A stretch of 62,940 bases of DNA, the filler included, from Folioceros fuciformis (Eukaryota), in assembly GCA_049999805.1 (NCBI GenBank). It is 4 parts of 4 records of this genome, joined end to end, with 100 filler letters (N's around TTAATTAATTAA, not from the genome) between each part and the next. Parts side by side here need not be neighbours in the genome. Positions count along the whole stretch, not along the records: positions 52,681 to 62,940 come from JBNGIO010004096.1; 3 more parts are not named here. One strand, written 5' to 3'. Positions 7,082 through 62,940 of the stretch are shown piece after piece (position 1 is the stretch's first letter; every line of letters begins with the position of its first letter). The notes below the pieces were generated by a model, which saw nothing but the letters and a program-made list of their open reading frames with translations, had not been told where the DNA came from and made no database searches. The translations under genes were made by a program, and so were the position numbers.

Positions 7082-7985
7082 GGCCTGTGGTCGCAGCAAG
7101 AAAATGCCGCAGCGATGAACAAACGTTATAACAGTCCTGACTCTCATACTGAATTTCGTCCTCTAGCTGGTACGGGACGCCAGACACATTCCCAAACAAA
7201 CAGAACCTGCCTCTTTGGGAAGAATGGCCAGTGAAATTCGCATGCAGCTCGGCTGATAACAACGGCACGCACGCACCGGAATGGAATGCTGGTGATTCGA
7301 GAACAGGTGGATTGAATGCCTTAATGTAGGACAGTGAAGTTGTCCTCTTGCTCTGGGATTCTCGGGAGGTTTCACCTGCTCCTCTCCTTGCCCAACACCT
7401 CTCTCTTCCAGGACCGACCGACTCCCGCATCCCCTTGCTGTCCAGCGATTGTTCCTAGGGCCAAGCATTCGAAAGGAGGTCCTCGCGGCGGACGGCGCTT
7501 CAGTTCCTGGAAGCCCACATTGGGATGTGCGAGCCTGCGTCTTCCTGTGCACATCTCCGAAATTTGAAGCTTCGATCGTACGGAGAGGCCAAGAGGGCGG
7601 CATCGGGCTTCCCGCTCCCTCTGCATGTTGGGACGGAGGTCATCGGTACTACAGTGGATCGATCATTAGATGCTGCTTCATGTTTGAGATGGATGAAGAA
7701 GAGGACTCGGTGCATACATTGAAAGCACAAGACAAGCCAGATGCTGGTCTCATCTGAAGGAAAAATGGTCACACTAGTTGTCAGATCCAGGCTCGAATGA
7801 TCTCGAGATACTCGGTAACTAGCTGATCTCCGTCTCCCTTATCCGTCTGAGCCATGAGAGTCTCCGGCGGGTAGACCTATCTGGTCCGGATAGGGACAAG
7901 CGCATGGGTTGCTGTACAGTGTACAGAAGGGTGGTGGTGAACATGAGCCCGCCCTCGCCCAGCTGCCGGGATGTGTTAAACCCTG

Positions 7986-10024
7986 TCATGCAGCAACAGG
8001 AATCTTGGCACCGACTTTGCTCAAGATCTCGTCATCTGTTGAGAAGTCGGCAGCCTTCCGGAAAGTGCCCCGGCCGAAGTCCAAACCGTAGGAGTGGGCC
8101 AAGCCGTCGACAAGGCCGAATTCTGGGGCCCATCCCAGCTCCTTCTTAGCCTTGGCTATGGAAGTGAAGAAATGCTGCACACCCCGTAGCCCCGACTCAG
8201 AACATGGCACCACGGGCTGCCATTGCAAATGTCGCAAAGTCACATGCAATTGCGGTGTACCTGATCGCGGAGAGGAAAGGGTTTCTTCTTGCCGAAGTCG
8301 AATTCCTTGGGGTTGTAGTGCACTAACTCCGGGGCAGGGAACCCGCCAGCCTGAAGGTGGCGAGTCGAAGCTTAGTAGGAGGGCTTCCCGTGGGCATCCA
8401 TACTTACAGAACTCGTGAAGCAGTAAGTACCTCTGCGCAGGCCTTGGCGATGCCATCGAAAGTCACGTATTTCTCGCCGGAGATGTTGTAGATCTCCCCG
8501 TAGGCGGTCTCATTCCCTAACACTGTGACGAATGCCCTGGCTAGGTCCTGCAGTCACAAGCGGATGCAAAGTTTTGTCACACAAAGCGCCTAGCCTAGGT
8601 GATGGTGAATGCAAGACGACAACCCTGAAACACACAAACCTGGACATGGCCGAGTTGGGTGATTTGCAGACCAGAGCTTGGCACAGGGATTGGACGATTG
8701 GCTTTCAGTCGGTGGAAGAACCATTCCTCTACTGGGTTGTAGTTGAGGGGGCCGTAAATGTAAACTGGTCTGAGGGATGTCCAAGGGGTGCTTTTGCTGG
8801 CAAGCAAGGACTCTGTGTCGAGTTTGCCCTTGTGCCTACTCTTGGGGTCCACAGCATCTACCTGCAGACGCGGCCTCCGTTAGACCACATCCTCCTCACA
8901 TGACTCTGGTACGACGAAGAGGACAAGAGAGGATGGACTGAGCGTACTTCGTAGTGCGGAGGCAGGTCGGTCTTCAAATACACACCAGCTGACGAGCAGT
9001 AAATGTACCTGCAGACAGAGGAGCCATGGCATGGCGGTGAGAAGAATCCGTTTCCTTCTCATCACTGTTGGATTCGGAAGAGGGGCTGCTTTAGCTTACT
9101 GCTCGAGGCTTGGTAGCGCCTCGAGGATGGGCTCCACCTCTGCCGCTTCCCGTCCTGTTTCAGGGACCTGGAATGAGCCCCCAGCAAGAAAGACGGCGGT
9201 GAGCAACATAGCTCAGGAAGGATGACTGACCATTTATGTCATAGACAACATCGAAGCCCGTGCCTGCAAGCTTGCCCTTGAGCCCTTCAAAATCCTGGCG
9301 GTCTCCTTGAATGTGCTTCACCTGTTCAAACATGAAAACATCAGTGCTGCCGTCTCGGTTTCCCTGATGCGTGCACGACACAACGTTTCCTGCAGAATCT
9401 GGATGAACCGTGGGCTACCTTGGAGGCGTAAGCACTGTATTCCGAGTCTTCTTCTCCTGGCAGTTGCTGGGTAATTGGCGCTTTGCCTCGCGTGAAGAGT
9501 GTGACCTGCAAACAGCAAAGATAAACAGCGGTGGTTAACGCTGGGACTACTGGGAATGCATGTGCAGCACTCTCAAAAGGCTGTGAGCTTCACCTCGTGG
9601 CCATCCTTGACCAGGAGTCTGGCAAGATAGATGCCGATGAACCGCGTGCCACCCATCATCAGAATCTTCTTAGGAGCCACAGCGGCGCATCGTGCTCCTT
9701 GCTGCCTCTCCCGCTTCACAACGCACAGGCTATTGCTTGCCTGCACAACCTGGCAATCTCACACGCGATAATCACAATCCGCAAATGCTGACTCAATACA
9801 CTCCTCTGAAATTCATTCAGCATGACGGCCACGACGCCCACCTGCTGCGTGTGCTGGCTGGAGGCCAAATCGTGGCAGTGCAGGCCCGAGAAAGAGGCCT
9901 GCAGCCTGCTGGAAGACGCAGCCAGACTGGCGTTCTTGCCATTGCTGCAGCGGCAGGGATTTCCTTTGGAGATGGAGACGGTGGCAGCACCAGTAGCCAC
10001 AGCAGCTGCATTCACGGCAGCCAT
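7986..10024 (-). CDS. CSP41B: Chloroplast stem-loop binding protein 41b (epimerase/dehydratase fold)
   Basis: Ala/Ser-rich transit peptide. Multi-exon peptides KILMMGGTRFIG, DVVYDING, RPVYIYGPLNYNPVEEWFFHRLKA, QITQLGHV, C-terminus QHFFTSIAKAKKELGWAPEFGLVDGLAHSYGLDFGRGTFRKAADF. Confidence 0.95.
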
Positions 10025-13752: not shown

Positions 13753-16700
13753 ATGGACGGTGTGTCCGCAGCGCAACCTGGGCCTGATGCTGGAGCTGGC
13801 GGAGCATCCACATCCGGAGCCAACGATGGCGGCGCATCGGCGTCCGCATCGCAGTCCGCGGATGCCTCCGGGGTCACCGAGGACGTGCTCGGTCGCGCGC
13901 GGACTCTCATGCGCCGCATCGTTTCTAACAGGAGTAAACCCGATCCCTGCGACCTTCACTGCCTCGCCACCATTCTCGAGCAGGAGGAGCTCCGGTGGGA
14001 CCTCGTCCGCCACCCCTGCCTTGCGTCCTTGCGATTGAATGAGCTGCCAGACTCGCTTGTTGGGAGTCTTAGTTGTACACTGCTTCGGGGGCCACCCGGG
14101 AGCTCCTGGTTACCGTCCGTGGGGTTGGATTGGACTTGCGCCAGTTCGACGCTTGGAGCTGGTCCTCAAGTTGTAGCTTTGGAGCTCCCCGCCGCAGGCC
14201 GATGCAATTCCAGGCTTTCGGACTGTGGCAGTTTTCTGTGGTGTGTGGTAGACATTGGCAGCTGCACAGCTGAGCTAGCTTGCTGAGGTCGTGCATTGGC
14301 TACGTGCACCTGAGCTAGTCTGCCGAGGTCGTGCATTTGCTACTCCTGCGGATTGGCCGTAGGGGAATGTGCATGCGCCGTTGGAAGATTGTCGCTGCCA
14401 AGTCCCGAGTCCTGGACGTGTGTGAATCCAGTCCTGAGTCCTGGATGTCTGCAAACGTTTGTTGTATGGGCTGTGGTGTCTCGGGGTTTGGTGCCGCTTT
14501 CTCATGTGTCGTTTTTCTTCCTATTCTAGGTTTGAGCAGCAAGGGGGTCACACCAATAACTCGCGTTCGGCGCACAATATAGGCAGGCTGGTGTCCATGT
14601 TGAGAGTAATCTCCTCATCTCCTCTTGTTTTCTTCCAAAGATGTTGTATGCTGTTATTCGTCCCGGCGAGTATGTGAAATTTTGTGTGTGGGTTTCCTCC
14701 TTGCAGGATGACGATGAGTTCTTTGAGCTCTTGTCCACAAACCTGTTGGTAGACAGTATCTACTCCACAAAAACACGCGCAGCAGCAGCTCGACTTTTGT
14801 ATTCTTGTGTTTCCGGCTGGGTGGTAATCTCTTTTTTTTACAGCGGTTTTTCATCGGAAGGGATCTTGGAGATGGTGGCAAGCATGCTGATTGATGATGT
14901 CTCCTCGGTTGGCATTCCAGTACCCACACGATTTCGAGGAGGCGGTTGTGAATAAGATCAAGGAATGGGTTGTTGAAGATATACTCCAAGATGGGATATC
15001 TCACAGGAGTTCACGGAGAAAAACCATCTCTAGTGTAGAGGATGTGGACCGTGAAATTCTCAGGACGCATGCAACTGGCCTCTTGGCTTTAGCGTTGGCT
15101 GGGTATGTTTCGCCCTGCGTGTTATTTTCAGCCGACTCTATGTCATTCCAGTTTTTTCTTCTTTCACATGCGCGCTGTAATCTATGTTGTAATTGCAGAT
15201 CTGATATAGTTGATGAAGTCTTGGGAAGTGGTATGGTCTCCAAGTTCATGCACTACCTTCGTATTCAAGTCCTTGGTCACGAGGCTATTGAACCCCCAAG
15301 TTCGGACAGCCGGTCAAATGCGGGTGTTGGTGCTGCTCGTGGAAGGGATGAGTGTCGAGGGCGAACTCGACCTCCCTTGGATGATGGATCGCTGGGTGAA
15401 AAGCCAGCGAATGAGCCATTCTTTCAGGAGCCTTCTGTTGATGGTACGGCTGAGGGCGATGGGGAACGTGATGATGACACGAATAATCTGGCGGATCAAC
15501 ATCCGGTAGATGCGATCTCTTACGCACTAGGGACTTCTGAGGCCAAGCCGAGCATGCACGATTCAACAGAGGAAGGTGATTACACCACTGAAGATAGACG
15601 GAGGAGGAAAGACCGGAGAGATGGGAAGAGTAGAGGTTTGGACTGGAGTAGGAATCACCGTGATGTTGAGACAGAAGAGCTTGGAAAATTGGAGGCAGCT
15701 AGGCGTTGCGGTGACGTTAGGGACCGTGTAGGTGGTCGAGGTAGAGGGAAGGGCAGGGCCGGCGATGTGTTGAATGATACTGTACAATATTGTTCTGGTG
15801 TAAGAGATGCCAGCCAAGCTCGAAGGGCTCTTCTGGATAGAAGTGGCGGTTCAGACTCTGTTATGGCCTGTGACATGGATACTGCCCTAACAGACAGTGA
15901 TGCTGGTCTCTCTGATCATTTCAGGCCCTATGAGGATAACAGCAGGAGCCTGGTGATTGGGAGTCTGGATTTATCTGCAGTGGTTAGGCAGGCTTCCAGT
16001 GCTGCTGAAGCTGAGGCAAGGGCTGCCCAGGCCCTACCAGAAGCGGTTAAGGTTGCAGGGGATGCAGCTGCTGAACTTGTTAGATTTGCGGCAACAGAGG
16101 TGATGCGATAACATTTTTCATGTCCTGTGCTATTTTATTGTGTAGATGTGCTCTTCATTTACTTGAGATGTCGTGTGGTCTAATTGTGTGTGTGTGTGTG
16201 TGTGTGTTTTTCTTTTTGGTAAAGTTAACATTCTTCTTGGCCGTACTAGGCTTTAGGAGAAACGAATGACTTGGACGCCGCACTAGCAGCAGCGGAAGCA
16301 GCAGTGGCCTCAGTCGTGGATGCTGGAAGGGCAACAGCAGTGAGCAGGTCTGTTATGTTCTGGTCTGGAATGCTTTGGTCAGGTTGGATTTATGCAAATC
16401 AAGTTCAGGCGGTGAATGATGTTCATCTGTGGTCATCAGCAGTGCTCCAATTGCCTCTGGAGACACTTTTGTTGAGAGTAATATAGGTCAGAAGGCCACA
16501 GAGGAACACTTGTGCGATTTGGATACTCAGAGAGGGGATTGTCAAATGGACATTGAAGTGTTGGCCTTCCTAAGAGAGCGCTTCTGTGTTCAATGCTTGG
16601 AGAAGATGGGAGAGTATGTTGAAGTACTGGGTCCTATACTTCATGAAAAAGGAGTGGACGTCTGTCTAGCATTGCTAGAGCGTGGAGCGAAGGACAGCTT

Positions 16701-19700
16701 GTCTGTCAGAGACATGGGAATGCTGACAGATGTACTGAAACTCATCTGTGCTTTCTCTGCACATCGTAAATTTGCAGCTCTTTTCGTGGATCGTGGCGGT
16801 GTACAAAAGCTTCTTGCCACCCCACGAATCCCACAGACCCTCTCTGGCATCTCTCTCTGCTTTTCTGCTTTGGCTTCGTTGCAGGTACTTGTTTTGCTTG
16901 GATGGGGTCTTTTATCTTTGTAGCCTACTGATCGGAAGTTAACTTCAAAAATCTGTGTTCATTTGTTGCGTCAACTGTTGCTCCAGGGTGTTGTTATGGA
17001 GCGCGTCTGTGCTTTGCCTACGCCCATAGTGCATGAGATCGTAGCTCTGGCCCTTCAGCTCCTAGGGAGCTATCAAGATCCAGCTCGACGGCATGCTGCC
17101 GTGTTTTTTGGAGCTGCATTTGTGTTCCGAGCGGTCTTGGACGCCTTTGATAGTCAAGATGGGCTCCAAAAATTTTTGCTTGTTCTAGGAAATGCTGCCA
17201 TGTTGAGGACTGGGGGGTTTTCTGCAGCACCAGGTACCAGTTCAATTTCAGCAGGCTCGAGAAGTGACCGGGGATCGGGTGCAGAGGTATTGACCTCCTC
17301 AGGAAAGCACATTGCCTTCCAGACATGTGTGGCATTGCGGCAGTACTTCCGAGCTCATTTTGTGCTAGTTGTCGAGTCACTGCGTCCTTCAAAAGGTCAT
17401 CGAAGTGGTTCCCGAGGCACAGCTAATTCCAGGGCTTTTTACAAGCCCTTGGATCTTAGCAACGAGGCAATTGAGTCCCTGATTACTCAGCTGCAGCGGG
17501 ACAGGAAGTTGGGCCCAGCTTTTGTGCGTTGTAAATGGATTGCACTTGAAAAATTTATGGAGTCGACGGGGCACATCACTTTATTACAGCTTACCCAGGT
17601 ACATTCCCGGCATTCCCAGTTTTACGCTTCCAGCTGCATACGTTTATGTGAAGATCATGTTTGAGCTCAACTTTCAACGTTTGACTGTGCTGTCTTTAGC
17701 GTTGGCAGGCCGCACCTGGCGACAGGTATTTGAATGACATTGCCCGGCATGCACTGGATGTACTGCAAATAGTTACTTTAATGCCGTTAATTCGACGACC
17801 GGTGGTAGGAGCCACACTCTGGAATGAACGTTCTGGAATGGCTGTTATTCTGGAAGCAGCAAGTGGGGCAGCATTTGGGGATCCGGAGGTACTTCAGCTG
17901 GCACATCGATTTGTAAGCTTTTGCTGTGGGAGGGGGTATATGTGTCAACTGTGTAGAGTCATTGACTCCCATGTGTTCTGGATGCAGGTCCTTCAAGTAG
18001 CCCTAATGGTGCTAGTTAATCTGGTTTGTCCACCACCATCGCTGTGCAGTCGTCCCTTGGTCCCTAGCACACCTGCTGGGCAGCAGGTTCAGAATAGTGG
18101 GGTAGGATCACAACCAGCTTCTGGTCTAGGATCATCCGGGGGTAATGGTGAGGGGCGAGAACGTCTATTTAAGGATCCAACACTTGAGAGAATCATGATG
18201 CAAACTCCAAGTGCCGGAACACCTGGTTCAGCAGTTGTGGGGGATCGTAGAATCTCTCTTGGGCCAGGGGCAGGGNNNNNNNNNNNNNNNNNNNNNNNNN
18301 NNNNNNNNNNNNNNNNNNNNNNNNNNNNNNNNNNNNNNNNNNNNNNNNNNNNNNNNNNNNNNNNNNNNNNNNNNNAGGGGCAGGGGGCTCTGGTATGGCG
18401 TCATTCATAGAGCATGGTTATCGTGTTGCTCGTGAGGCAGTGCGTTCAAACAATGGAATTCGAGTTCTCTTGCACCTACTCTATCCTCGCGTAGTTTACC
18501 CGGCAACTGCTCTTGACCGGATTCGGGCTTTGGCATGTCGTGTGCTCCTCGGACTGGCCAGAGATGACACCATTGCTCATATTTTGACAAAGCTTCAGGT
18601 ATGTCATGGCCCCTAAGTTGGTTGCTGGTTTTCACCTCGTCAGAGTTAATGGGCCATAAGGTGATGCTTTCTAGCATGCAAATTGATGCTGTCAATCATG
18701 TTTCAGGTTGGCAAGATACTGTCTGAATTGTTGAGGGACGGAAGTGCAGCAGGGCGAGATTCGGGTTCTGCTGTAGGTGGGGAACAAGGAAGGTGGCAGG
18801 CTGAGCTTAGCCGGGTGGCCCTAGATCTTATTGCAGTGAGTTATCATACGCAGGTTTCATAATGATCAGCAATTGTGTGAGGATTTGCATTGGTGGGAAA
18901 TCTATATGCTTGGGTTTCTGGATGCAGATCGTGACAACTGCGGGAAGAGCCAGCACTGTTGCTGCTAGTGAAGCGGCTGCACCAACACTCCGGAGGATTG
19001 AAAGAGCTGCTATTGCAGCTGCCACTCCTATTAGCTATCATTCAAGGTTCTGGTTTTTCTGTTCCTTCCTTCTTTATGCCTTGTGCTTGCTAAGCGTTTT
19101 TTGAGTTTGCTTGACATATTTCACGGCAAGGGTTGTATTGCAAGATTATCAACTTCATGAGAAGCTTGTTGTGTTGCACAGAGAACTGCTTCAGCTTATT
19201 CATGAACATCTCAAGGCTTGTGGACTTCAAGATTCGGCTAGTGCCCTTATGAGGGAGGCCCAACTGACTCCATTGCTGCCTTCGCTGGTCCCTGGGGCTC
19301 TAAGCCTCCGTGTTTCGCCCTATGAGGACAAGATGGATTTTATGCAATGGCCCACTGGGCGTGTACCTGGAGGATTTTTTGACTCTCATCCACAGTTGAG
19401 CAGGGAAAGGGAGTTGAACACATCTGTGAACTCAGGTACAAGTAGCAGGAGGACTCCCGGGTTTTCTGCTGGGCTGGGAGTTTCCAACGCTACTCCAGGA
19501 AAAAAAGCTCTGGCTGGAAAGGATGGCAAGGCGCCTGGCAGCCGTGATCAGGAAGCTCATGCTGGACCTAGCAAGATCAGCAATGCCGAGTCAGAGAATG
19601 TATCCAAAACCCCATCACGTGGACTATCTTTGAAGCGTAAGGCCAATGACAAAGAGTTGTCAACTATGTCTCCTAACAAGCGGGTTGCTCCGTCTGATGC

Positions 19701-21648
19701 AGCTTTTCCATCCTTCCCCCCATCAGCCTTCTATACACCTGCCCAGTCTCGTCTCAGAAGCAGTTTTTCCTTGGATGCCAGTTATCCAACACCTACGACC
19801 ACTATAAGCTCACAAGATAGTCTGCCAAGGCCTGTGTTGTTTGGAACAGCGGAAAAGGCAGAAGCTGCTAGTTGGCCGAATGACCCAGCACATGCAGTTG
19901 AACAGTTGCCATCGCATGCTCCTCACATTCATAGCTCAAGCCTCTCACAGGGTCCTCATTACCCAACAAACTCACCTTTGCTTCCAGATACCCGCTGCCC
20001 TGCTGAGAGGGCCACCTTAGATTCACTGGTGGTGCAATATCTCAAGCACCAGCACAGACAGTGTCCAGCGCCTATAACAACTTTGCCTCCCCTTTCTCTT
20101 CTGCATCCCCATATGTGCCCTGAGCCTAGTAGGAGCTTAGATGCGCCCTTGAATATAGCTGGAAGACTGGCTGCGCGGGAGATTTGTCCTCCACATGGGG
20201 GTCTTCATGGACGCAAGCGAGATCGTCACTTCGTTTACAGCAGGTTCCGACCATTACGATCATGCCGGGATGATGTTGGTGCACTGTTGACGACTACGAC
20301 ATTCCTGGGACGCGCCGCCTATCTTGCAGCTGGAAGTCAGGCTGGAGATATTCGGATCTTTGATTCTAGCTCAGGGAACACCCTCGAAATACAAACTTGT
20401 CATACATATCCGATCTTATCGGTGCAGTGTGCCCCTCGGGAGTTATCGACTGCTGCAGAGGTATTGACTTCCCATTCATCTTATCTGCTACTGTCATCTA
20501 CTACTCAGGATACTCGCCTTTGGGATTCATCAGCCTTGAGCAGTGGGCCTCTCCACATTTTTGATGGTTGTAAAGCTGCTCGCTTCAATCATAGTGGAAC
20601 TCGATTTGGTGGTATAGAGCCAACACTAAAGGAGGTGTTGCTTTATGATGTCAGCACTGGGAAACTGGAGCAAAAGCTGACGGATAGTGTTGTGGGTGCA
20701 CTACGATCACATAATCAAGCTTATGTTCACTTTAGTCCCACAGATACATTAGTGCTGTGGAATGGAGTGTTGTGGGATCACCGAATGTTTCTCTCTATCC
20801 ATAAGTTTGACCAGTTCACGGATTATGGTGGTGGTGGTTTCCATCCTGCAGGCAATGAGGTGAGACTTGCAGGTTGTTGGTCATCTATTTACCCCTATTT
20901 TTAACAATGCACTGTCCTTGAAAGAGGCTCTTGATGATCTGCTCACTGTGAAGTGACGTTGTTGTGATTGACGCAGGTTATCATCAACTCAGAAGTCTGG
21001 GATTTGCGCTCTTACAAACTTCTGCGAAGTGTTCCAGCCCTTGATCAGACTGTTATCAACTTCAATGCCACTGCAGATGTAATATATGCCTATCTTCGCC
21101 GTAGTAGTGATGATATCTTGGCTGCTGTGAACTCTAAAAGAAGCCGTCATGAGCTGTTTTCTTCCTTCAGGACACTAGATGCTGTTGACTATTCCGACAT
21201 AGCGACCACAGCGGTGGATCGCTGTGTTCTGGACCTTGCTACGGAGTCTACTGATTCTTCCATAGCAGTTGTCGGCCTTGATGGACCTGATCAAATGGAG
21301 TCGATAGTAAGGCTTTATGAAGTGGGACGGCGGCGACCAACTGATGACGATTCTGATCCAGATGATGGTGGGGAATCTGAGGAAGAGGAAGAAAGTGAGG
21401 GAGAAGATGAGGATGAGGATGGAGACTTACATGGAGACGACTCAGACATTGACCTTCGCAGCGCTGGGGATGGCAGTGGCGATGATGCTGACTTTGCAAG
21501 CACTGATGAGGACATCAGTGATCGGGTAACAGGAGATATTTTGGAGCTGATATCTGATGACGATGAGGATGATCATAGTAGAGGTGGTTTCAGCAGTGGT
21601 GATGAATCCGAAGGGGACTTTGACGTCTATGCAGATGGTATTCGTTAG
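13753..21648 (+). CDS. DCAF1: DDB1- and CUL4-associated factor 1 (VPRBP homolog)
   Basis: Multi-exon. DDDEFFEL, LICAFSAHRKFAALFVDRGGVQKLL, LRRIERAAIAAATPISY, LisH (ELLQLIHEHLKACGLQDSASALMREA), TLDSLVVQYLKHQHRQCPAPI, WD40 repeats with HKFDQF and FHPAGNE|VIINSEVWDLR, acidic tail. Alternative in-frame ATG at 13681. Confidence 0.95.
16185..16206 (+). repeat. (TG)11 microsatellite in a DCAF1 intron
   Basis: Read directly. Confidence 0.9.
18276..18375. other. 100-N scaffold gap inside a DCAF1 exon, probably a spurious overlap gap
   Basis: AGGGGCAGGG occurs on both sides; merging the flanks restores the frame (SLGPGAGGSGMASFIEHGY). Confidence 0.8.
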
Positions 21649-52680: not shown

Positions 52681-52755
52681 TCCTCTCTGCCTCCTCTTCT
52701 CCTCTCCTCCACCATGCTCCTCTAGTGTTCCTACAACATTATGGCACCTTAACCG

Positions 52756-53721
52756 TTGACATACATGATGGCACCTCAACAACGACCATACATGATGGTA
52801 CCTCAACAACAACCACATAAGATGGCATTGCAACAAGAACCATATAAGATGGCGCCTCAACTACCACCAAACATGATTGCACCTCCATATAGGATGGCGT
52901 CTCCACCTCAGAACATAAGACCATCGGCCGGGAACATAGAAGCATCAGGTTCAATGATGGTGGGGAACATAAGAGCATCGGGTTCAATGATGGCAATGAA
53001 CATAGGAGCATCGGGTTCAATGATGGCAGTGAACATAGGAGCACCGGGTTCAATGATGACGGCGAACATAGGAGCATCAGGTTCAATGATGGTGGGGAAC
53101 ATAAGATCATTGAGTTCAATGATGGTAGCGAACATAGGAGCACTGGGTTCAATGATGGCAGCGAACATAGAAACATCAGCGGGGAACATAGGAGCATCAT
53201 GTTCAATGATGGCAGGGAACATAAGAGCATCGTGTTCAATGATGGCGGCAAACATTGGATCACCAGGTTCAATGATGGCAACGAATATAAGAGCACCGGG
53301 TTCAATGATGGCGGGGAACATAACACCACCAAGTTTAATGATGGCGGGGAACGTAGGAGCATCGATGGAGAACATAGGAGCATTGGGTTCAACTATGACA
53401 GATACAATCATAAGACAATTGCAACAATGTAACACGATGGCAAGTCATGATCAAAACACAATACCAACACCAACAACATCAATAGTGGCAAATGCGACCA
53501 CTAGACAACCTGCATAGATGATGGCAAGTCAAAACACAAAACCAAGACCATTACATCTGAAGAATCCGGAGAAGGGAGATAAAATGTTGAAGCAGCCATC
53601 CCATGCCATGGCAAGTCAAGATAAAGAGGGAATGGGCCAACCCCAACCTTGTGTGATGTTAGGTCAAAGCCCACTGTGGAGTAAAATGTTGTGTCCAAGG
53701 ACACCACGAGGTTCACACTAA
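52756..53721 (+). repeat. Met-rich tandem-repeat reading frame (27-bp then 33-bp units) with one in-frame TAG at 53515-53517
   Basis: 9-aa units (YMMAPQQRP-like) then about 14 11-aa units (NIGASGSMMAG-like); the frame continues as ORF 53518-53721. Confidence 0.75.
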
Positions 53722-54574
53722 CCCTCTATGTCGTTGTAGCCATGGGATTCGTTCCCAAGGGAATGATTTGTGCTAAGTAACATAGGTTTCTTCTACTACT
53801 GACTCTTACCTAGGTCAAGCCTTATCCACTACCGTTTCTACTACCCACTAGCTCCCTACCACGACCCCATGGTTAGCCTAGCTACCGTGGACTCTACTCT
53901 ACGACTCCGGTCCCTACCCTACGACTGCGGTCACTGGTTCCGCAACCAGTAGTGGTCTCCACGATCATGGCGGGTCCCACCCAAAACCCTAACTAATATT
54001 TTCCGGCACATGCGCCGCCGCGTGTTTCCAGCATGGGTTTCTACCCCAGGGGCTTCCAGACTCACGAATCTGGTCTTATTGGATGCTCCTCACACATGCA
54101 AATAATAATCCTTGGGGAACAAAACCTCGCGGATCAGCCACACTCTCTCGCACGTCCATGCATCACTCTCCACACATGCAAAACACACCAAAACTCTGGT
54201 GTACACTTATTCCTCACAGGTCTGTCTCCAAGTTTCTCCAATCTCCTAGCAACATCCACAAATCTTCAGCGGTTCCTCAGCAATTCTTTACAACCCCTCA
54301 CAAGCTTCAACAATCTCCAATCGTTCTCCACAAATTCTCAGAAATTCTTCAGAAATCATGTCCAAGCCTCAGCAATCTTTCTCAACCATCCAGCAATTTC
54401 TCAGTGGTTCTCTTCAGTCTCCAACAATCTCAGCAATCTTCCAGGGTCCTCCCCGGTCCCTCAACTCACTCACTCCTTCTCTTCACTCACTCCTCCAATC
54501 TTCTTCTTCTTCTCACACACCCACTACAACACCTCGTCTTCTCACACACGCTCTTCAACACCAGATTCGAAACG

Positions 54575-54861
54575 TAGCCACGGTTCAGGGAACAAGGGAA
54601 GGAGAAGTCCCCCTCCACTTCCACTCTACGCAACTGGCGGATTCACCCCCCTTACCTTCAATTGCGGACCATAGTTAGCCGTTCAGGGAATAAGGGAAAG
54701 AGAAGTTCTCCTTCCACTCCGCGCAACTGGCGGATTCGTCCCCCTCACCACTCACCGTAGAGCACAACTAGCAATTCAGGGAATAACGGGAAGGTGACCT
54801 TCCACTCAGTAGGGAATTTGCTTATTCGTCCCCCTCACCACTAGCTGCGGAGCAAAAAGCT
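54575..54861 (+). repeat. Three diverged ~95-bp tandem repeats, typical of retrotransposon non-coding internal regions
   Basis: TAGC..TTCAGGGAA(C/T)AA.GGAA...CCACTC...ATTC..CCCCCT.ACC recurs near 54575, 54676 and 54769. Confidence 0.7.
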
Positions 54862-55159
54862 CTTGATCACCCCTAGGATCATCGCGCACACACTACCCAC
54901 CTAGACATCTCCAATCTAGCCATGGGCAGTGTGGGGATCTCAACCGGGAAGAGTCTCCAACATTTGCTAATTTCTGAGACCCAACAGGCCTCTTTGTACA
55001 ACTCACCAGGGCGGGATCGTAGCCGCCATTAAGTCTAGTCTTACGCAGTCAAGCGCTCTTAATTGCGAGCAGCATTAGGTCCAAGAAAGCATCCTCACCA
55101 CATCTTAACTAAATATTATTCTAAGATGCAATGAATTCTGGCCTATCCTATTACCGTGC

Positions 55160-56840
55160 TCACCTCCTATCCGGCCTTCGCGTACTCCTTCCTTGGCTGC
55201 CAAATCCCTGGGCTCTCCTCCCTCTTTGCTTGTTAGGTAGGTCCTCCCATAGAACCTCCCCCTCACTTTCGCTGCCGCCTGACTTCTCCTGTTGGGGCAT
55301 GGGTGGTGTCCACCGGGGGGTCCTTCCCCCACCTTCCGATCGTCTTTTAGTGAGGACAATTACAGGTTCTTGGTCCACCCAGGCCTGCGCTTCCTCTTCT
55401 ATGAGTTCCTCCAGGACTGCCTCCGAGTAACAGGGAGACAACCCCCACACTCGGAAGCAATGGGAGAAGCATTGCCTGCGGGTCCTCAGTTGCAGGCAGT
55501 AAGCCCTTGTCCCTCCTATTTCCACACGCACATGGAAAGTAAGGTTAAGTACACAATCCCCATTCACGTAGAGACCAGGAATATAAGATTCCTCATCCAT
55601 ATGCTATAATACAATCTGGCCTCCTGCTGTAGATGAGGTGCTTACCCCCTCCTCCCGTGGGCTACCTCGAACTGTCTGTCTTCTACTCTCTAAGGGTACT
55701 AGGGGGGTCCTCTGTTCTTCTGGCTACCACTGTCCCCAACCCCATCCTCCTGAAGCAGGTTGTCATTCCAACTACCACGGTTGCGGGTTCCGCGACTCTT
55801 CCTACTTCCTCAGCTTTGGTGGGGCTTTCCTCTACCGCTGTGGTCTCCCTCTGACTAGTAGCGGCTTCTGCTATCACGGTCGTGGACCTGTTGCTTCGTT
55901 TGACCTTCCCTTTCCCTTTGACTTGGCTCCGGGCCTCATCCTGTTCTCGTTTGTAACGATCCGCGAGCTTCTGGACCTTCTCCACTGCAACCGCCTCTTG
56001 CTCCTGCGCTCTCAACAACTCCTACTGCATTTTCTGATTGGCTTCGTGGACCTCTTTGACTTGAGTCAGGAGCAGTTCTTGTTGATCTTTCATTGCTTGC
56101 ACTTCCTCCCAAGCCTGGCGTACTTCCTCCTACGCCTACGCCTTTGCTACACTTAGGGCCTGTCGGGCTTCCTCCAGTTGCTCTTGCCTTGCTTCCGCTT
56201 CACACAACTTGACCTGACCTCCCCTTCTCTTTGTCCCTACATGCTCAGCCAAGTGAGCGCCCGTGTAGCCTGATCCAGCATATCCACTTGCGCCCGGACC
56301 ATGGCCGCTGTTAGGCCCGGAATATCCATCTGTTAGGGTGCACCTCCAGTAGCCATCCCTTTGTCCAGGATTCTCCTCCCCAACAGGGTGCGCACCCTTG
56401 CCAATTCCTTCGCCTGTAAGTTCGCCACCAAAGGGGTGTCCTTGAAGATCTCTTCCCACCATGGAAAGAGTTCTTCCCCCAGAGTCAGCCCTAATTTCCC
56501 TGCCACCTCAGTCGGTTTTACCTTCTCAGCTGGCATTGATTCCTTGGATTTCGCTAAGGAGGTGGCCGGCTATGTGGCCCTTGTTTTCTGGGCAAACTCC
56601 TACAGCGCCAAATTCGTTGCTAACCTGGTGACGCGTGCACTCGCTTTCCTCCTCTTCGCGGGAGTCTTTCGCCCGGCTCCTGCCTTCCATTTCTTGCTGA
56701 CCAACGCCTCCTCTTCCAAGCTTCCCGTCGCCCCGGACTCCAAGCTGCGATTGCACTCCACTTCGAAAATACCCCATGACACTTGGGTCCCCACTTAGGG
56801 TTTCCATTCGTTCGCGGCGCTTTGGTTCCATAACCATCCT
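55160..56840 (-). mobile_element. Decayed coiled-coil ORF, probably an accessory ORF of an LTR retrotransposon
   Basis: Consecutive minus-strand ORF pieces (WEEIFKDTPLVANLQAKELARV, EARQEQLEEARQAL, LLRAQEQEAVAVEKVQKLADRY) separated by single stops and frameshifts. No RT or integrase motif seen. Confidence 0.45.
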
Positions 56841-56948
56841 GGAGCTCTGCTATTGATTACTCCCTCCACGACGGTTGTCCATCTTCCCCAACCGTTGCTG
56901 AGTTAAAGCTACTTCCCTTTTCAACCTAAGTCCATGGTTCCTTTCATC

Positions 56949-57048
56949 NNNNNNNNNNNNNNNNNNNNNNNNNNNNNNNNNNNNNNNNNNNNNNNNNNNN
57001 NNNNNNNNNNNNNNNNNNNNNNNNNNNNNNNNNNNNNNNNNNNNNNNN
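56949..57048. other. 100-N scaffold gap
   Basis: N run. Confidence 0.95.
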
Positions 57049-57398
57049 CCTTACATAGGCTCTTTAGGACCTTCAAGGACCGAAGGCCAAGGAACAACTA
57101 GCACCCCTCTTGACTTGGTCCACGGACCAATTATTGGTCAACCCTATTCCTAACCTCAAAACTTTGAGACCCAAGGAGGTCTTGAGTATAAATACCCTGG
57201 CCCATTCTTAACCTAAGCCACTTTCACACCCAACTTACCAAAAAGCAAAAAAAACACTTAGTCTCACACTTGGGCAGAGGATTTCTAAACATTTTTCCAT
57301 TTACACTCAACAACATTCATATCTTATAAAGGTGGTAACACTATAGGCCAAGGAAAGGTCACCAAGCAAAATTAAAAGATTTAGAAATTGGCCCATCA

Positions 57399-58151
57399 TT
57401 GGAACCAGTTTCTTACATGGATGTTAATCCCATATTAAATGTTTATCACGACTTCACAAAGATGGATCTAGAAGAAAATGATGACTTCAAAAGGATATAC
57501 AAGGAATTTCAAGATATGATAGATTCTGAACAACATCCTGACTTCACTAAGAGGGACAAGCAAGTTCAAGCATGTGATATCTATAAATCTCAACAATATG
57601 ATATCCATGATCTCGATCCTAAAGAACATCATGCCTTCATAGAGATCTGCAACAAATTTCAACAAGATGTAGTTTTTAGAGTATATGATAACAACCTTCA
57701 TGACTTTGAAGAGCTGTCCAAGGACTCAAAAGATATTGTACATAAATATTGTGTGGACGACTCCTAAAAGCTGGACAAGGAATTTCAACATGATCTAGAA
57801 CAATATTGTGACATAACTGAAGTTTCTCCTCTTGAACTCCAAAGTTATAATGATAAGTCATATCTTCCTCCTTTGGATACCTTGACCAAAGAATGCGAAG
57901 AAGGTGCTTTACTCAAAGATCTTCACAATCAACAACAAAGAATTCTAGCAAGCCAAGAACATATTGCAGCCCATGAAGATCTCCAAACTCAACAAGAAAT
58001 CACAAATGAACAACAACTTGAAGACATCTCGAGAAAACTCTCGAGCAACCACCTTCATGCCACAATAGCCCAAGTGGAAAAAAAAGATTACGCACAGAAA
58101 CATCACATGCATCTAGTCCACACAAAAGCAAGAAAAGGAAACAAATCTTAG
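57399..58151 (+). pseudogene. Acidic ~250-codon reading frame with one internal TAA; unknown product, probably element-borne
   Basis: ORFs 57399-57767 and 57873-58151 are in the same frame, interrupted only by TAA at 57765-57767; TATAAATA near 57187. Confidence 0.4.
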
Positions 58152-58530
58152 AGGAACATTATTCATTGTTTGTACCATGTTAGGGAAGAGGCTAGTTTCT
58201 CCTCCATCTAAGGGAAGAGGCTAGTTTCTCCTCTCCCTCTTTTTGTCTCTCTGTCTCTCTCTATTTTTACTAGTTTTCAACAATATCAATCAAGTTGTTT
58301 TATATTCGTCTCGAGTAGTAGCATCTTATCTCGAACAAATCATATTAATACGTGACACTTGTTTCTTAGCCTTAGCATTGGCCTCTTGCTTCATCTCCTA
58401 ACATGCGTTATGACTTGGAATATGGTGTGGAGAATCTGGAGCTAGCAATCTTCCCTCTCCATCTTTCTTTATGCATGTCATGGACATGCTTTTTCCGGAT
58501 GCTCGGGAATAACTACTTCCTTCAGTTTCT

Positions 58531-59136
58531 TCAATCTTCATCGCCAACAACCTTACCATTGTGATGCAAGTTTGGGCCCGCTCTAGTTTGTGACCATCTT
58601 GTTTCCTCACCTTGGACAAAGTGGGGTATGTAAGCCGCGCATCGCAAGTCCGCCTCAACTACGATGCAATTCCTTCTTGAAAGCAGCCCTGCCACTGTTG
58701 TTGTCCTACGGCCAGAGCAAGTATCCACCACCTAATCTCCTCCCTCGGAGAATGCAAGCACAAGTTTCATCATAAGACCCAGCGGTCGCTGATACGGGCA
58801 TACCACATGTTTATCATGCGACAGATAAATCTGCTTCTTCACAACCGAGTCATGGACAGTGATAGATCTTCCTATGTTGAATGGTGGACGGGATACTCCA
58901 GGAAGCATGAATACTCTATCTTTTCCATAGCTGTCTTTTGCACCCCAAGCCACTGTGTTGTACTCCACAGTCTCATAAATTGGAGCCCGCCTGCGGAGAA
59001 AAAGGAAATGAGGAAAGAAAAACGTAAAACCTACGTAGCGAGTAATAGCCGCTAGCATCACCATACAAAACCTGATGGCAAGGAAACATAGGGCAAGTAC
59101 ATACCAATTCTTACAGGTATATATGTTACGAAGTTG
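58531..59136 (-). pseudogene. Beta-class (circularly permuted) N4-cytosine/N6-adenine DNA methyltransferase, C-terminal half, intron-containing and disrupted
   Basis: QLRNIYTCKNW|(GT-AG intron 58991-59104)RAPIYETVEYNTVAW...CPYQRPLGLMMKLVLAFSEGGD*VVDTCSGRRTTTVAGLLSRRNCIVVEAD. This follows the N6_N4_Mtase pattern HPxQKP..L...LI...S..GD.VLDPF.GSGTT.VA.....R..IG.E.D. In-frame TAG at 58732-58734; catalytic (D/S/N)PPY motif not found. Confidence 0.78.
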
Positions 59137-59235
59137 ATTGCAACTGATTGTAACTGTAGACCGACAATGCATTTTGTGGTTGCACGGTGTGGGTGGAGTT
59201 GTGCTTGTTGTTCGCGCATGCAAGGTGTGTTGCAG

Positions 59236-60112
59236 GTTGTTGCTTCGGATGGCCCTAACCAAGCAGCATATTTAGTAGTGGCGTTTGGGCATGCTCTCTA
59301 CAATTTCCTTTCAGTGTAATACCTTGCACAAGCAACCCTACTCTCCACATTGTAGTTGCTTGTTGTGCGTTGTGCTAATTGCAAGTGGTGGTAATTATTA
59401 CCCACACCCCCTTTTGTGCTTTATGCAGGCATTGCAAGTTGCCCAGGACAACGCCTATATGAAAGGCCTGGAGGGATTGGACTATCTCCTTGATATGTAT
59501 CGCTTGCACTTGGCCTTGACCACATTGTGCAAAGAGTGCAAAAGCAGAATGGAGCCCTTGGATGCCTACCTACATGCTCGGACGTAGGAGAAGGCCACTC
59601 CGTGGGCGTGGACAGGCATTTGCCTCCTTCACTCTCGGCAGTAATGGGGGGAGGGGGGGATATGTCCGGTGCCTTAGGGACGTGTGTGTTGTGGGGTGAG
59701 ACCCTATGTAGCTTTGCCTTGTCCTCATGGGCTTTGAAATAAAGGTGGGCATTTCATTCCCCACTAAGGTTGTGCAAACCTCCTACCGTTTGTTTGTCCC
59801 CCTTGTCCTCCTCACATCCATGCAATTGCATAGTGAGGAAGGCATGGAAGGGATGTCCCCTTTAGTAGGTTGTGGATTGGAGTGGCGAATACCCAGAAAT
59901 GAACCCGAGGCCGGTCTGGGGTGTGCATGGAGGTGAGAGAGATGTGTGCACACAAGATAGAACGCTGAATGGTGAAGTTCGTCGTGAACCTTGCAATCGG
60001 AGGATGGATGCTAAACCACAAACCCTATTCCTAATAGAAAAAAAAGTGAATGACTGTGAGTGAGAGAGTCGGATCCGCATACGTGAGGAAGAAAATATTA
60101 TCACACCCTAAG
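59236..60112 (+). pseudogene. Spliced coding remnants of an unknown element gene, weakly resembling KDZ transposase C-terminal helices
   Basis: Exon-like pieces after pyrimidine-rich AG acceptors at 59235, 59428 and 59868: HALYNFLSV*YLAQ, ALQVAQDN...LDAYL, LFLIEKKVNDCE*ESRIRIR. Confidence 0.3.
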
Positions 60113-60469
60113 GTCTGTCCCGATCGGGACACCTAGATGGCGCCCTACGACCGAAGGGGGCATATGTGTTATGTCCAAAAGTTTGAATCGTATACCGCCG
60201 CACAAAACTTTGTGTAAAAGCCTACGTGACCGTATCATATTCCATATGTCATACCTACAATACTCATCTTATTCAATAATTACCATATGCCACTTCAAAC
60301 TTCACAGCATCCTTCCACGTTCGGCTTGTTGATGCCGGCTCCCGATGCTAGTTGCTTGAGTTCCTTGTTTTTCCTTTCTCTTCTATCTTTGTGGTCTATA
60401 CTGGCTACTGTCTCCGACTACTAGTGACTGTCCCCTGTCCCTACTATCACTTGCTATCCTCTCCTAGCA

Positions 60470-62500
60470 TGCTAACCGCCCTTGGTTGTAGCTGGTTTGT
60501 GTGTATGCGTGCTTCACGTAGCTGGTCGGGATGGTGTCAAGTAGTAGCATCTTATGTGACGTCGCAAAGATTGTGGACAAAATTTTCCATCCGAAGAGAA
60601 GCTTGTGCAGCATATGTGTGGAAACATGAAATGATCTAATATTCTCGAGGTGTTGCAAAGGTCAACATAATTAAAGCGCTTCAGCATGTCTTCATCTATG
60701 TACCACTTCGAAGCCACATCCATGGAGTCTTTAAAAACAATTTCAAGGAAAGTTGAGCTTAGCATCGCTTGTTGCTTGGTTTCCTGCAGTCTAATAATAT
60801 AAGGTTTCCTGCAATCTAATAATGATTTGTTATTGACCTATGGGTTGAAGGATACAACAATACTCTGACCATCACTTGGGCTCCACTTCCATGGATGAAA
60901 TTTGTGTAACTATATTATGAAACTAAGCTTTGATCAAAGTTGAGAGTCTTCTGGATTACAAACAAGAATATTACCAGGTAAAATGTAGTTTCTATTTTAG
61001 ATTCACGTAGGACTAGTGACGTTTGTTTTTATTCAGTACTAAGATGTATGAGATAGACAATAATAAGGTTCAATTTTTTGAACTTCAAATCATTGATGAA
61101 GATGGGGATTATCACAGAAGCATATGAAATGGAATCACACTGAAAAGATCCTAACTCCCGAGCAAATAGATTCTCTTGTTCCACCTGTTCGGGAGTTAGG
61201 ATGTTCTGAGTATGAAAGATGTAGATTAAGAGCCTCCATTCCGTGTGCTTCTGTAACAACCTTCCATCTTTATCGATGACTTGAAGTTCAAAAAAATAAA
61301 CCTCACTGGCGTCTATCTCATAGAGCTTGGTACTAAATAAAAACAAACATACATAAATACCTCAAAAACACTTATCCTATATGAATCTATAAACCGTATT
61401 TTACTGAGTAATAGTCTATCTATATATAGTCTAGAAGATCCTAAACTTTGATTAAAGCTTAGTCTCGTAGTATAGTTGCACAAATTAGAAGCCCGAGTGA
61501 TATCAAAGTATTTTTATATTCTTTAACCTGTAGGTCAGTATCAAATCATTATTAAACCACAGGAAACCTTATCAGACCAAGATCAGAGTACTAAGTGACA
61601 AGCATGCTAAGCTCAACTTACCTTGAAATTATCTTTTGAAGACTGCAACAACTTGAACTTCAATAACTTGAAGTTCAAAAAAAAACCTCACCAACATCTA
61701 TCTCGTAAAGCTTGGTAGAGAATGAAAACACATGTATAAAGCACTAATAACATTCTTACCTGTAGTTTAGAAAATCTGAAACTTTGGTCGATGCTTAGTC
61801 TTTAGACGTCTTTCATCCGTGGAAGAGGAGCCCAAGTGATGGTCAAAGTATTACTGTCCTGTAAATAAGTGACAATCATCGTCCAAGGCACATATGATAA
61901 ATATATATCATTATTGCAACATGAAACCTTATCAGACCAAGTGATAACGAAGATAACCTCAACCTACGTTGAAATTGTCTTGTGCTCAACCTACCTTGAA
62001 ATTGTCTTGGGAAGACTCTATGGCATTGTCTTGTGAAGACTCCCCAAAAGTCTCTATGGCATTGTCTTGTGAAGACTTCCCAAAAGTCTCTATGGCATTG
62101 TCTTGTGAAGACTTCCTCGCACATGCCTTCAAAGTGGCAGGTCCCCTCGAAGTGGTATCACAAGACTCCATGGCAAGTGCCTTAAGAAGTATGTAGCTGG
62201 AGACGATGTCGCTGCGCTGTTAAGCTCTCTTGCTACAGATGACGTATTAGTTAAGCTATCTTGCTAGAGACGATGTCGACGCACTTAGGTTAAGCTCTCC
62301 TGCTGCACATGATGTCGACGTGATTTAGTTAAGCCCTCCTCGTACGCTGACCTCTGCAACATCTGAAGAGAATTTCATGTTGCCGAAGCTCTGTCTACAA
62401 CCTATGTGAGGACAAACAAAAAGCTGCACACTTGACACCATCCCGACCAGCAATGTGAAGCATACAAAGAAAGCAGCTACAGCCGAGGGCAGTCAGCAAC
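60470..62500. repeat. Large diverged inverted repeat (fold-back) centred near 61175, right arm partly tandem-duplicated
   Basis: Central stem ATCCTAACTCCCGAGCA (61148-61164) / TGTTCGGGAGTTAGGAT (61186-61202). 60725-61105 pairs with 61262-61645; 61660-61990 repeats part of the right arm; CTTGACACCATCCCGACCAGC near 62430 is the reverse complement of the stretch near 60520. Confidence 0.8.
62016..62116 (+). repeat. 36-bp tandem repeat, ~2.8 copies
   Basis: CTCTATGGCATTGTCTTGTGAAGACT(C/T)CCCAAAAGT at 62016, 62052, 62088. Confidence 0.85.
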
Positions 62501-62660
62501 AGCTGAAAGAGGGTAGGGAGCAGTAGTCAGCAGAGGAACCCCGACCCTAGACGGGAGAGGGGTTTACGGTCCCCGGGGACAATCAGCAATAGCTGGGAGA
62601 GAGCACTCTGCCGGCAATAGCCGAGGAAGAGCAGCCAACAATAGCCCACATACAGCTTTG

Positions 62661-62870
62661 GAGCCAGCCTGCAGAGAAAAAGGAAATGAGGAAAAGAAAA
62701 ACTTGGAACCCACGCAGTGAGCAACAGCCGCCAACATCACCATACAGAACCTGATGGCAGGGAAACATAGGGCAAGCACATACCAATTCTTCCAGGTATA
62801 TATGTTGCGAAGTTGCAGCCCGGGCGGCTTGGCTCGGCTGATGACGCGCAAATATTGCCCCTTCTATGAA
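62661..62870 (-). pseudogene. Second fragment of the DNA amino-methyltransferase gene (exon + intron)
   Basis: ~155-nt diverged direct repeat of 58983-59136; translates S*KGQYLRVISRAKPPGLQLRNIYTWKNW|, matching the beta-class GF.LRN.I.W.K segment; same intron position. Confidence 0.7.
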
Positions 62871-62940
62871 AGATGCCGTCGACCTTGTAGGATCACTAGA
62901 GGAGCATGGTGGAGGAGAGGAGAAGAGGAGGCAGAGAGGA

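Follow-up and report, generated by a model that had tools for sequence, protein, structure and literature searches.

A decayed N6_N4 DNA methyltransferase fragment in Folioceros fuciformis, probably a remnant from a family of streptophyte mobile elements

The stretch of DNA analyzed here (hereinafter, the window) consists of 62,940 nucleotides (nt), filler included, from the assembly GCA_049999805.1 of Folioceros fuciformis. On its minus strand, positions 58990-58534 encode the C-terminal part (~150 residues) of a beta-class N6_N4 DNA amino-methyltransferase (MTase). The minus-strand frame 59271-58531 reads, in order, ...QLRNIYTCKNW, YVLALC...FLFLRR, RAPIYETVEYNTVAWGAK...VVCPYQRPLGLMMKLVLAFSEGGD, an in-frame TAG, VVDTCSGRRTTTVAGLLSRRNCIVVEADLRC... 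and a final stop codon at 58531-58533 (-). The portion that can be aligned to related proteins, by tblastn of the relatives, by the family profile and in the alignment, spans ~58980-58591 (-). We consider it likely that the whole segment 58531-59136 (-) is a non-functional remnant of a eukaryotic N6_N4 MTase that came from a family of mobile elements of streptophytes. The features of the locus are collected in Table 1.

The assignment to the beta-class N6_N4 amino-MTases, made originally from the sequence alone, is borne out by the agreement of several searches. When the frame is translated through the TAG, residues 149-209 match Pfam PF01555 (N6_N4_Mtase) with an E-value of 3.8e-5 and 24.2 bits, which narrowly misses the gathering cut-off of 26.7 bits and covers only positions 159-213 of the 221 in the profile; all 10 relatives of the remnant that were scanned pass this cut-off. 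NCBIfam yields weak matches of the read-through to adenine MTases, CcrM included. A phmmer search of 1.84 billion representative proteins returned 45 matches at E<=1e-3, the best of them at 4.5e-12 (P0002) and 8.9e-12 (P0003). When a profile built from 13 relatives was compared with the six-frame, stop-to-stop pieces of the window, the sole matches were the two open reading frames (ORFs) on either side of the TAG (2.3e-11 and 3.7e-11), and against this family profile the last exon, translated through the TAG, reaches 98.2 bits. The two ORF fragments that were joined in the original prediction read exactly as given there, and the resemblance to MTases is more than chance. One candidate relative, P0004, a bacterial repeat protein of 1653 residues, was rejected, having matched only the intron or junk part of the read-through.

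This copy is a dead, 5'-truncated pseudogene fragment, as had been claimed. Its reading frame is not uninterrupted, and the alignment agrees with the guess that the TAG arose from TGG. In motif I, the S-G of the relatives' SGSG is replaced by RR, such that the binding site for S-adenosylmethionine (SAM) is not intact. Neither the catalytic motif IV ([D/S/N]-P-P-[Y/F]) nor any other part of the N-terminal half of the MTase domain was detected in the whole window by tblastn or with profiles, and the match to the family profile in the window is restricted to profile positions 108-226. Because of the stop codon, the ruined SAM motif and the absent catalytic half, the copy cannot work.

Table 1. 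Coordinates of the methyltransferase remnant, the second copy of its upstream block, and other features in the window
Feature	Positions	Strand	Basis
Last-exon remnant of the MTase gene: RAPIYE...PYQRP...GD[TAG]VVDTCSGRRTT...RNCIVVEADLRC...	58531..58990	-	tblastn of relatives, family profile, alignment
Degenerate SAM-binding motif I, SGRRTT; SGSGT[TG] in relatives	58699..58716	-	alignment
In-frame TAG; Trp (GDW/GEW) in that column in most relatives	58732..58734	-	sequence and alignment
PYQRP; family motif (N/C/S)PYQKP, K replaced by R	58783..58797	-	alignment (Q and P invariant, K nearly invariant)
Putative GT-AG intron, 114 nt, phase 2, within a Trp codon (TG/G)	58991..59104	-	sequence; intron in related loci
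Upstream-exon remnant QLRNIYTCKNW, ending in the split Trp codon	59105..59136	-	sequence; adds 1.6 bits to the profile score
Second partial copy: LQLRNIYTWKNW, intron and first 9-10 nt of the last exon	62658..62815	-	88.6% identity over 158 nt
Receptor-kinase-like ORF set	near 2335-4413		read from ORF list
DCAF1 homologue	14891-21648		protein search
Coiled-coil/zinc-finger ORF, 510 residues	21959-23491		read from ORF list
Lipase-like ORF, 532 residues	39844-41442		read from ORF list

Upstream of the last exon, the frame crosses a putative spliceosomal intron, with the donor AATTG/GTATGT (last exon base 59105 (-)) and the acceptor TTCTCCGCAG/G (first exon base 58990 (-)); the intron ends in a pyrimidine run and CAG. 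Introns of the same kind are common among 80 related metagenome loci (the source of all loci denoted by L-numbers below): in 42 of these, a phase-2 intron of 77-110 nt lies in the Trp codon that precedes x-K-x-N, compared to none of the 80 in a reverse-strand control and 2 of 80 viral loci in the same scan. For example, the exon ends in ...GLTW in L036 and in ...NLAW in L021, with a TG/GTAA donor, and the following exon opens with G and VKTNVN.... Because the conserved Trp codon is split in the same phase in these 42 loci, by introns of similar length, the intron of the window is probably genuine and inherited. The splice sites of the GT-AG intron claimed originally are present as read; the contribution of the mini-exon to the profile score is slight. 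The upstream motif had been read as RN.I.W.K, which is imprecise: the exon-final W is most likely the conserved Trp of the family, and the x-K-x-N expected to follow it, about six codons, is missing in the remnant.

The most serious alternative, albeit an unlikely one, is that the MTase fragment begins at the apparent acceptor (~58989) and that the 158-nt block taken here for an exon and an intron is an unrelated repeat abutting it, with no intron involved and thus no sign of eukaryotic gene structure in this copy. Indeed, this block recurs in the window (Table 1), its flanks there are unrelated on both sides to those of the first copy, and the likeness ends 9-10 nt into the last exon. With the upstream exon included, the score against the family profile moves from 98.2 to just 99.8 bits, a value equaled by 5 of 300 random controls, and the corresponding exon of the second copy gives 98.5 bits (20 of 300 controls); taken alone, the mini-exon is weak evidence for an intron. 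Furthermore, among the contigs of three DNA runs and of X4 (RNA, by guess) from the same organism, which were placed on 57100-62940 at >=80% likeness, a contig of X4 runs unspliced through the block of the second copy (62336-62813), and the x-K-x-N found after the Trp in relatives is missing. The closest protein matches, P0002, P0003 and P0013, are continuous across the intron position. Against an abutting repeat, the block ends in a Trp codon that is split TG/G by a sequence with GTATGT at one end and a polypyrimidine tract with CAG at the other; Trp-splitting introns in this phase are frequent in the related loci and nearly lacking in the controls; and ...YTCKN...W in the upstream exon resembles ...STCKG.....W of the closest relatives.

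The nearest relatives of the window fragment, by the protein matches, are eukaryotic and not bacterial. Records were looked up for 30 of the 45 phmmer matches. These include 5 proteins of Chara braunii, annotated merely as 'DNA methylase N-4/N-6 domain-containing', one protein of Ginkgo biloba (Gb_37443) and one of Riccia sorocarpa (KAL3685543), the latter annotated as an ordinary gene product; the remaining matches looked up come from Logan, ENA or JGI or have just a generic methylase label. The family thus sampled is found across streptophytes, that is, in Chara braunii, a liverwort, Ginkgo and plant-like assemblies. Full-length members have in common W-x-K-x-N, (N/C/S)PYQKP and D-x-[CF]-[SA]-G-[ST]-G, and the eukaryotic relatives carry acidic low-complexity tails. 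In those relatives that keep motif IV, it reads D-[F/I/V/L/P]-P-[Y/H/R] and never TSPPY, the variants being DFPYG in Chara and P0015; DIPYG in P0026, L036 and L021; DIPHG in Ginkgo; DVPYG in Riccia; DLPRG in P0003, P0013 and P0019; and DPPYG in P0024. In a maximum likelihood tree of 32 rows and 111 columns (28 eukaryote-type and 4 prokaryote-type rows; DN4MT1, the sperm 4mC writer of Marchantia discussed below, is not among them), the window sequence falls within the 28-row eukaryote-type clade, with support of 96/86 against the 4 prokaryote-type rows. For the MTase exon of the relatives, dS was measurable in 17 of 45 pairs, which show ratios of nonsynonymous to synonymous substitution rates (dN/dS) of 0.02-0.25, and is saturated in the rest; for the ParB-like region, the single measurable pair of 28 gives 0.03. 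By these values, the genes of this family are under strong purifying selection in the relatives.

Two peculiarities of individual family members deserve mention. The subgroup with DLPRG in motif IV (P0003, P0013 and P0019, all Logan records), which includes two of the closest matches of the window, is without the long ParB-like N-terminus and may consist of non-catalytic or differently acting derivatives. The Chara braunii protein P0005 (GBG86584, 1825 residues) contains two complete tandem units, each with a ParB-like and an MTase part; low-complexity sequence rich in Ala/Pro and Glu lies between them, and part of motif I is missing from the first unit; this protein probably represents two adjacent copies of an element that were fused by gene prediction.

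The N-terminal region of the full-length members gave no Pfam match to ParB, either in 10 relatives (E<=0.01) or in the N-terminal ORF of L036 (E<=0.1), and a sequence search of the PDB with this region found no ParB at E<=1. The domain was detected by fold search alone. An AlphaFold2 model of the N-terminal region of L036, built from a 14-row alignment (mean predicted local distance difference test score, pLDDT, 77.1; predicted template modeling score, pTM, 0.65), retrieved in Foldseek the structures of ParB, Noc, KorB and sulfiredoxin, with a best E-value of 5.4e-6, a probability of 1.00 and target-normalized template modeling scores of 0.36-0.50. By these matches of the model, the full-length members are fusions of a ParB-like domain with an N6_N4 MTase.

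The combination of ParB with an N6_N4 MTase is reported to be enriched in phages and prophages (PMC12704722), and the phage fusions, as described there, have the same plan as the full-length relatives, with a ParB/Noc/KorB-like fold at the N-terminus and a beta-class MTase at the C-terminus. In contrast to the phage proteins, the relatives identified here have spliceosomal introns, acidic tails, D-x-P-Y rather than DPPY in motif IV, and a setting in eukaryotic elements with terminal inverted repeats (TIRs), and the window itself retains only the tail of the MTase. Phage clusters make up most of the look-alikes of P0003 retrieved with a protein language model. In the collection searched, viral contigs yielded only generic phage beta-MTases, with 24-31% identity, and no close viral donor.

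The link to mobile elements comes from the related loci, which are plant-like contigs in which an SDR gene, pieces of gypsy elements and introns of the GT-AG type are present. In L036, an ORF of 873 residues with the Pfam domain DUF7869 (3.7e-51) is located head to head with the ParB-MTase gene, and both are enclosed by a pair of 33-nt TIRs (698-730 and 8389-8421) that are placed exactly at a break in a Ty3/gypsy pol gene, between the RNase H/pre-integrase part and the integrase zinc finger. In L020, the DUF7869 and ParB-MTase genes again lie between TIRs, of 37 nt each and 97% complementary (180-216 and 7737-7773, 7.5 kb apart), and the TIRs of both loci start with AACAC. L028 contains the DUF7869 and MTase genes in another arrangement, with one matching end, and L003 has a DUF7869 fragment at the contig end. 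The DUF7869 gene adjoins the MTase gene in 4 loci. The N-terminal region is present in diverged copies, with 52-88% amino acid identity, in at least 25 of the 80 loci. The clusters of DUF7869 look-alikes are eukaryotic and commonest in Streptophyta, Oomycota and Echinodermata.

Palindromes occupy equivalent places in the two complete elements. Between the divergent DUF7869 and ParB-MTase genes of L036 (4103-4304), there are five copies of a unit of ~36 nt built around a perfect palindrome, the 31-nt arms of which are 100% complementary; in L020, a 20-nt palindrome (95%) is found at 3629-3669. These palindromes could be binding sites of the ParB type or a bidirectional promoter.

Several observations weigh against tracing the remnant to a mobile element that encodes an active enzyme. 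Nothing in the window ties the fragment to a transposon: tblastn and profile searches of the whole window revealed no remnant of the ParB-like domain or of DUF7869, and no TIR like those of L036 and L020 was found in the window at <=7 mismatches. No inverted repeats bracket the remnant, given that all such pairs in 54000-62940 lie at or beyond 60470. The original placement of the fragment between inverted termini is therefore not upheld; the clear pair (60470-60579 and 62392-62498) lies upstream. The metagenome and ENA contigs with TIR elements are just 26-38% identical to the window peptide, over 50-110 residues. The DUF7869 protein would be the transposase only by presumption, the structure model (3-sequence alignment, pLDDT 35.7) being unusable. 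In the tree, the window sequence sits on a long branch (1.45), and where it belongs within the eukaryote-type clade is not fixed; because the outgroup is thin, with four prokaryote-type rows, the tree does not establish that the eukaryotic sequences are monophyletic. In P0003 and P0013, DLPRG at motif IV has no aromatic residue, so that part of the family may be non-catalytic. Finally, the summed depth of the contigs related to the remnant (see below) does not equal copy number. Of the proposal that a mobile element carried its own DNA-marking enzyme, then, what stands is that intact relatives reside in TIR elements of ~7.6 kb; termini, transposase and ParB are lacking at this copy. Its setting among decayed repeats was described correctly, the region being a patchwork of them.

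The chemistry of the intact members can be approached through solved structures. The structures closest to the family profile are adenine-specific beta-class enzymes, with 5hek at 1.3e-13, CcrM (6pbd) at 5.3e-12 and the adenine-specific set as a whole spanning 1.3e-13 to 1.8e-9, whereas enzymes that modify N4 of cytosine are further away (8s9m at 5.6e-9, PvuII at 0.008). The solved adenine MTases 5hek, 2zie, CcrM 6pbd, MboIIA 1g60 and RsrI 1eg2 share W-x-K-x-N, (P)xQKP and D-x-F-x-G-S-G-T with the family; unlike its full-length members, they are stand-alone prokaryotic proteins without a ParB domain, and their fold does not reveal which base is the target. We take 5hek, deposited as 'DpnA', to be M1.HpyAVI, and 2zie to be TTHA0409. 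Because the adenine enzymes are closest and motif IV contains Asp rather than Ser, N6 of adenine appears somewhat more likely than N4 of cytosine as the target in the intact members. The N6_N4 domain is described as having switched repeatedly between production of N6-methyladenine (6mA) and N4-methylcytosine (4mC) (Rodriguez et al. 2022).

These comparisons bear on a second alternative, namely, that the fragment is a decayed paralogue of a non-mobile host amino-MTase, such as DN4MT1, which writes 4mC in Marchantia sperm. The host is a bryophyte-grade plant; DN4MT1 is reported to be a bacterial-type beta-class enzyme that is tandemly duplicated in Marchantia (2021 preprint); and the Riccia member of the present family passes for an ordinary gene. 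As described in the respective sources, DN4MT1a/b and the rotifer N4CMT share with the window's family the Pfam domain, the permuted (beta) order of motifs, prokaryotic ancestry and introns. According to the preprint, though, DN4MT1a/b have TSPPY and cluster with prokaryotic N4-cytosine enzymes. A chromodomain is described for N4CMT, together with 'no eukaryotic homologs'. By these published motifs and descriptions, the window's family differs from both: it has D-x-P-[Y/H/R] and a ParB-like domain, is multi-copy and occurs in a transposon context. Given that no Marchantia protein is among the 30 of 45 phmmer matches looked up, that the relatives are multi-copy, TIR-bounded ParB fusions, and that the nearest solved enzymes are specific for adenine, we consider a host paralogue highly improbable. 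Kinship with DN4MT1 or N4CMT, which the original prediction cited as eukaryotic 4mC writers, is not supported.

Mobile elements that encode DNA-base-modifying enzymes are a known phenomenon, and this is the point that they have in common with the elements in L036 and L020. KDZ transposons carry TET/JBP. The MTases of the previously known elements belong to other groups, namely, Dam with NPPY, C5-DNMT and Methyltransf_26, as opposed to the combination of DUF7869 and a ParB-fused N6_N4 MTase in a TIR element of the relatives. Thus, DAM-retrotransposons (Dam family, Asn-Pro-Pro) and Gypsy-DNMT3 elements have been described, with the DAM-LTR (long terminal repeat) elements given as absent from Streptophyta (bioRxiv 10.64898/2026.05.21.726589), and Mariner elements resident in giant viruses are reported to carry MTases of other families (Bao and Jurka 2013, PMC3627910). 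Among the many eukaryotic clades of N6A-MTases, few are recorded from land plants (Iyer et al. 2015), and the links to ParB that appear in the accessible part of that survey concern Dam-type families of chlorophytes and chytrids and haptophyte families, not the family of the window. In the literature searched, with partial coverage and supplements excluded, we found no description of a family of ParB-fused N6_N4 MTases; under the same partial coverage, there was no mention of DUF7869, no link of PF01555 to Chara braunii and, judging by titles and abstracts, none of N6_N4_Mtase to plant transposons. The supplementary tables and figures of the preprints on DN4MT1 and DAM-retrotransposons might list the family.

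The DNA that surrounds the remnant is that of a plant. A DCAF1 exon of 599 residues (19105-20904) is 54% identical to its counterpart in Riccia fluitans, 52% in Marchantia and 51% in Calypogeia, followed by lycophyte and moss proteins; because this exon is most similar to liverwort proteins, the window is taken as nuclear DNA of a bryophyte-grade land plant. A bacterial or phage sequence, present through contamination or recent horizontal transfer and without eukaryotic history, could be imagined because the domain is typical of prokaryotic restriction-modification systems and of phages, where ParB fusions are enriched and to which most look-alikes of P0003 belong, but is scarcely credible for a remnant that is embedded in plant DNA and spanned by exact contigs from the organism's own DNA runs, has eukaryotic top matches and only remote viral ones, and shares its intron position with eukaryotic relatives. 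On this point, the original reading of the fragment as eukaryotic rather than a contaminant holds, given the liverwort-like DCAF1 exon, the position in the eukaryote-type clade and the intron shared with 42 of the 80 loci.

Diverged relatives of the remnant exist in the genome of the same organism. Over 58660-59049, the summed depth of the contigs is 77-90, whereas contigs of run X1 that are identical to the window have a depth of 10-14, and 307 of the 383 pieces of X1 that were placed are <99% alike to the window; the presence of diverged relatives follows because the summed depth exceeds that of the exact contigs and most X1 pieces are not near-identical. X4 contributed no contigs to 57100-60219, the remnant included, and is uninformative on its expression either way.

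The neighborhood is rich in other repeats. The stretches 59245-60219 (depth 150-277), 57100-57294 (273) and 62755-62940 (2441), against ~10-30 nearby, are separate, more abundant repeat families. Next to a run of N, 62885-62940 matches 52736-52681 in inverted orientation with 98% identity. The inverted-repeat pair at 60470-60579 and 62392-62498 (111 nt, 76.6%) flanks ~2 kb rich in internal direct and inverted repeats, a foldback element or one resembling miniature inverted-repeat transposable elements (60470-62498) that sits between the two copies of the MTase intron; X4 contigs from diverged copies cover 60220-62813. Downstream of the remnant, an AT-rich segment, 57339-58151 (+), contains two adjacent frames of 142 and 127 residues with a degenerate repeat of ~19-31 codons (D.F.K..KEFQ...), which match nothing in Pfam; one contig from this organism leaves out 57548-57802. 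Ten neighboring ORFs (52742-60636) likewise matched no Pfam family. A scan of the locus for bacterial promoters and terminators gave results at chance level and is irrelevant for a plant. In run X3, nearly every difference from the window over 57100-62940 is either C>T (339) or G>A (317), the pattern expected of a bisulfite-converted library, so that cytosine-methylation data for this organism probably exist. The first 52,000 positions of the window (1-52000) are gene-dense plant DNA (Table 1).

In the most likely scenario, a copy of a TIR element, or else a rearranged piece of such an element, inserted into a repeat-rich stretch of the genome, was then silenced, and eroded through transitions, deletions and later insertions. 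The last exon survives, along with a single intron and ~11 codons from the exon before it, and the copy has no present activity. By homology, intact members of the family presumably bind SAM via the C-terminal motif I and would methylate the exocyclic amino group of a flipped base via motif IV, D-x-P-Y, with the ParB-like domain supplying binding to DNA or to a nucleotide.

The fragment itself is inert, ordinary genomic debris, and its value is that of a pointer to an apparently undescribed family of streptophyte proteins, the ParB-fused N6_N4 MTases, of which two complete examples are packaged with a DUF7869 gene in TIR elements. Transposons with their own DNA methyltransferase are already known, in other enzyme families and other carriers. 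A far-reaching possibility, which at present we regard as doubtful, is that streptophytes, including land plants, harbor cut-and-paste AACAC-TIR/DUF7869 transposons of ~7.6 kb whose phage-derived ParB-amino-MTase actively writes nuclear 6mA (or 4mC), for example, on the element's own DNA via the palindromes; the window fragment would then be a fossil of this lineage, with active copies perhaps in the same genome, and such elements could be an overlooked source of methylation signals other than 5-methylcytosine in plants. If plant elements indeed encode active enzymes, they would provide a concrete, testable source for the disputed 6mA and 4mC signals in plant DNA and a further example, new in kind, of mobile elements that manipulate the epigenetic marks of their hosts.

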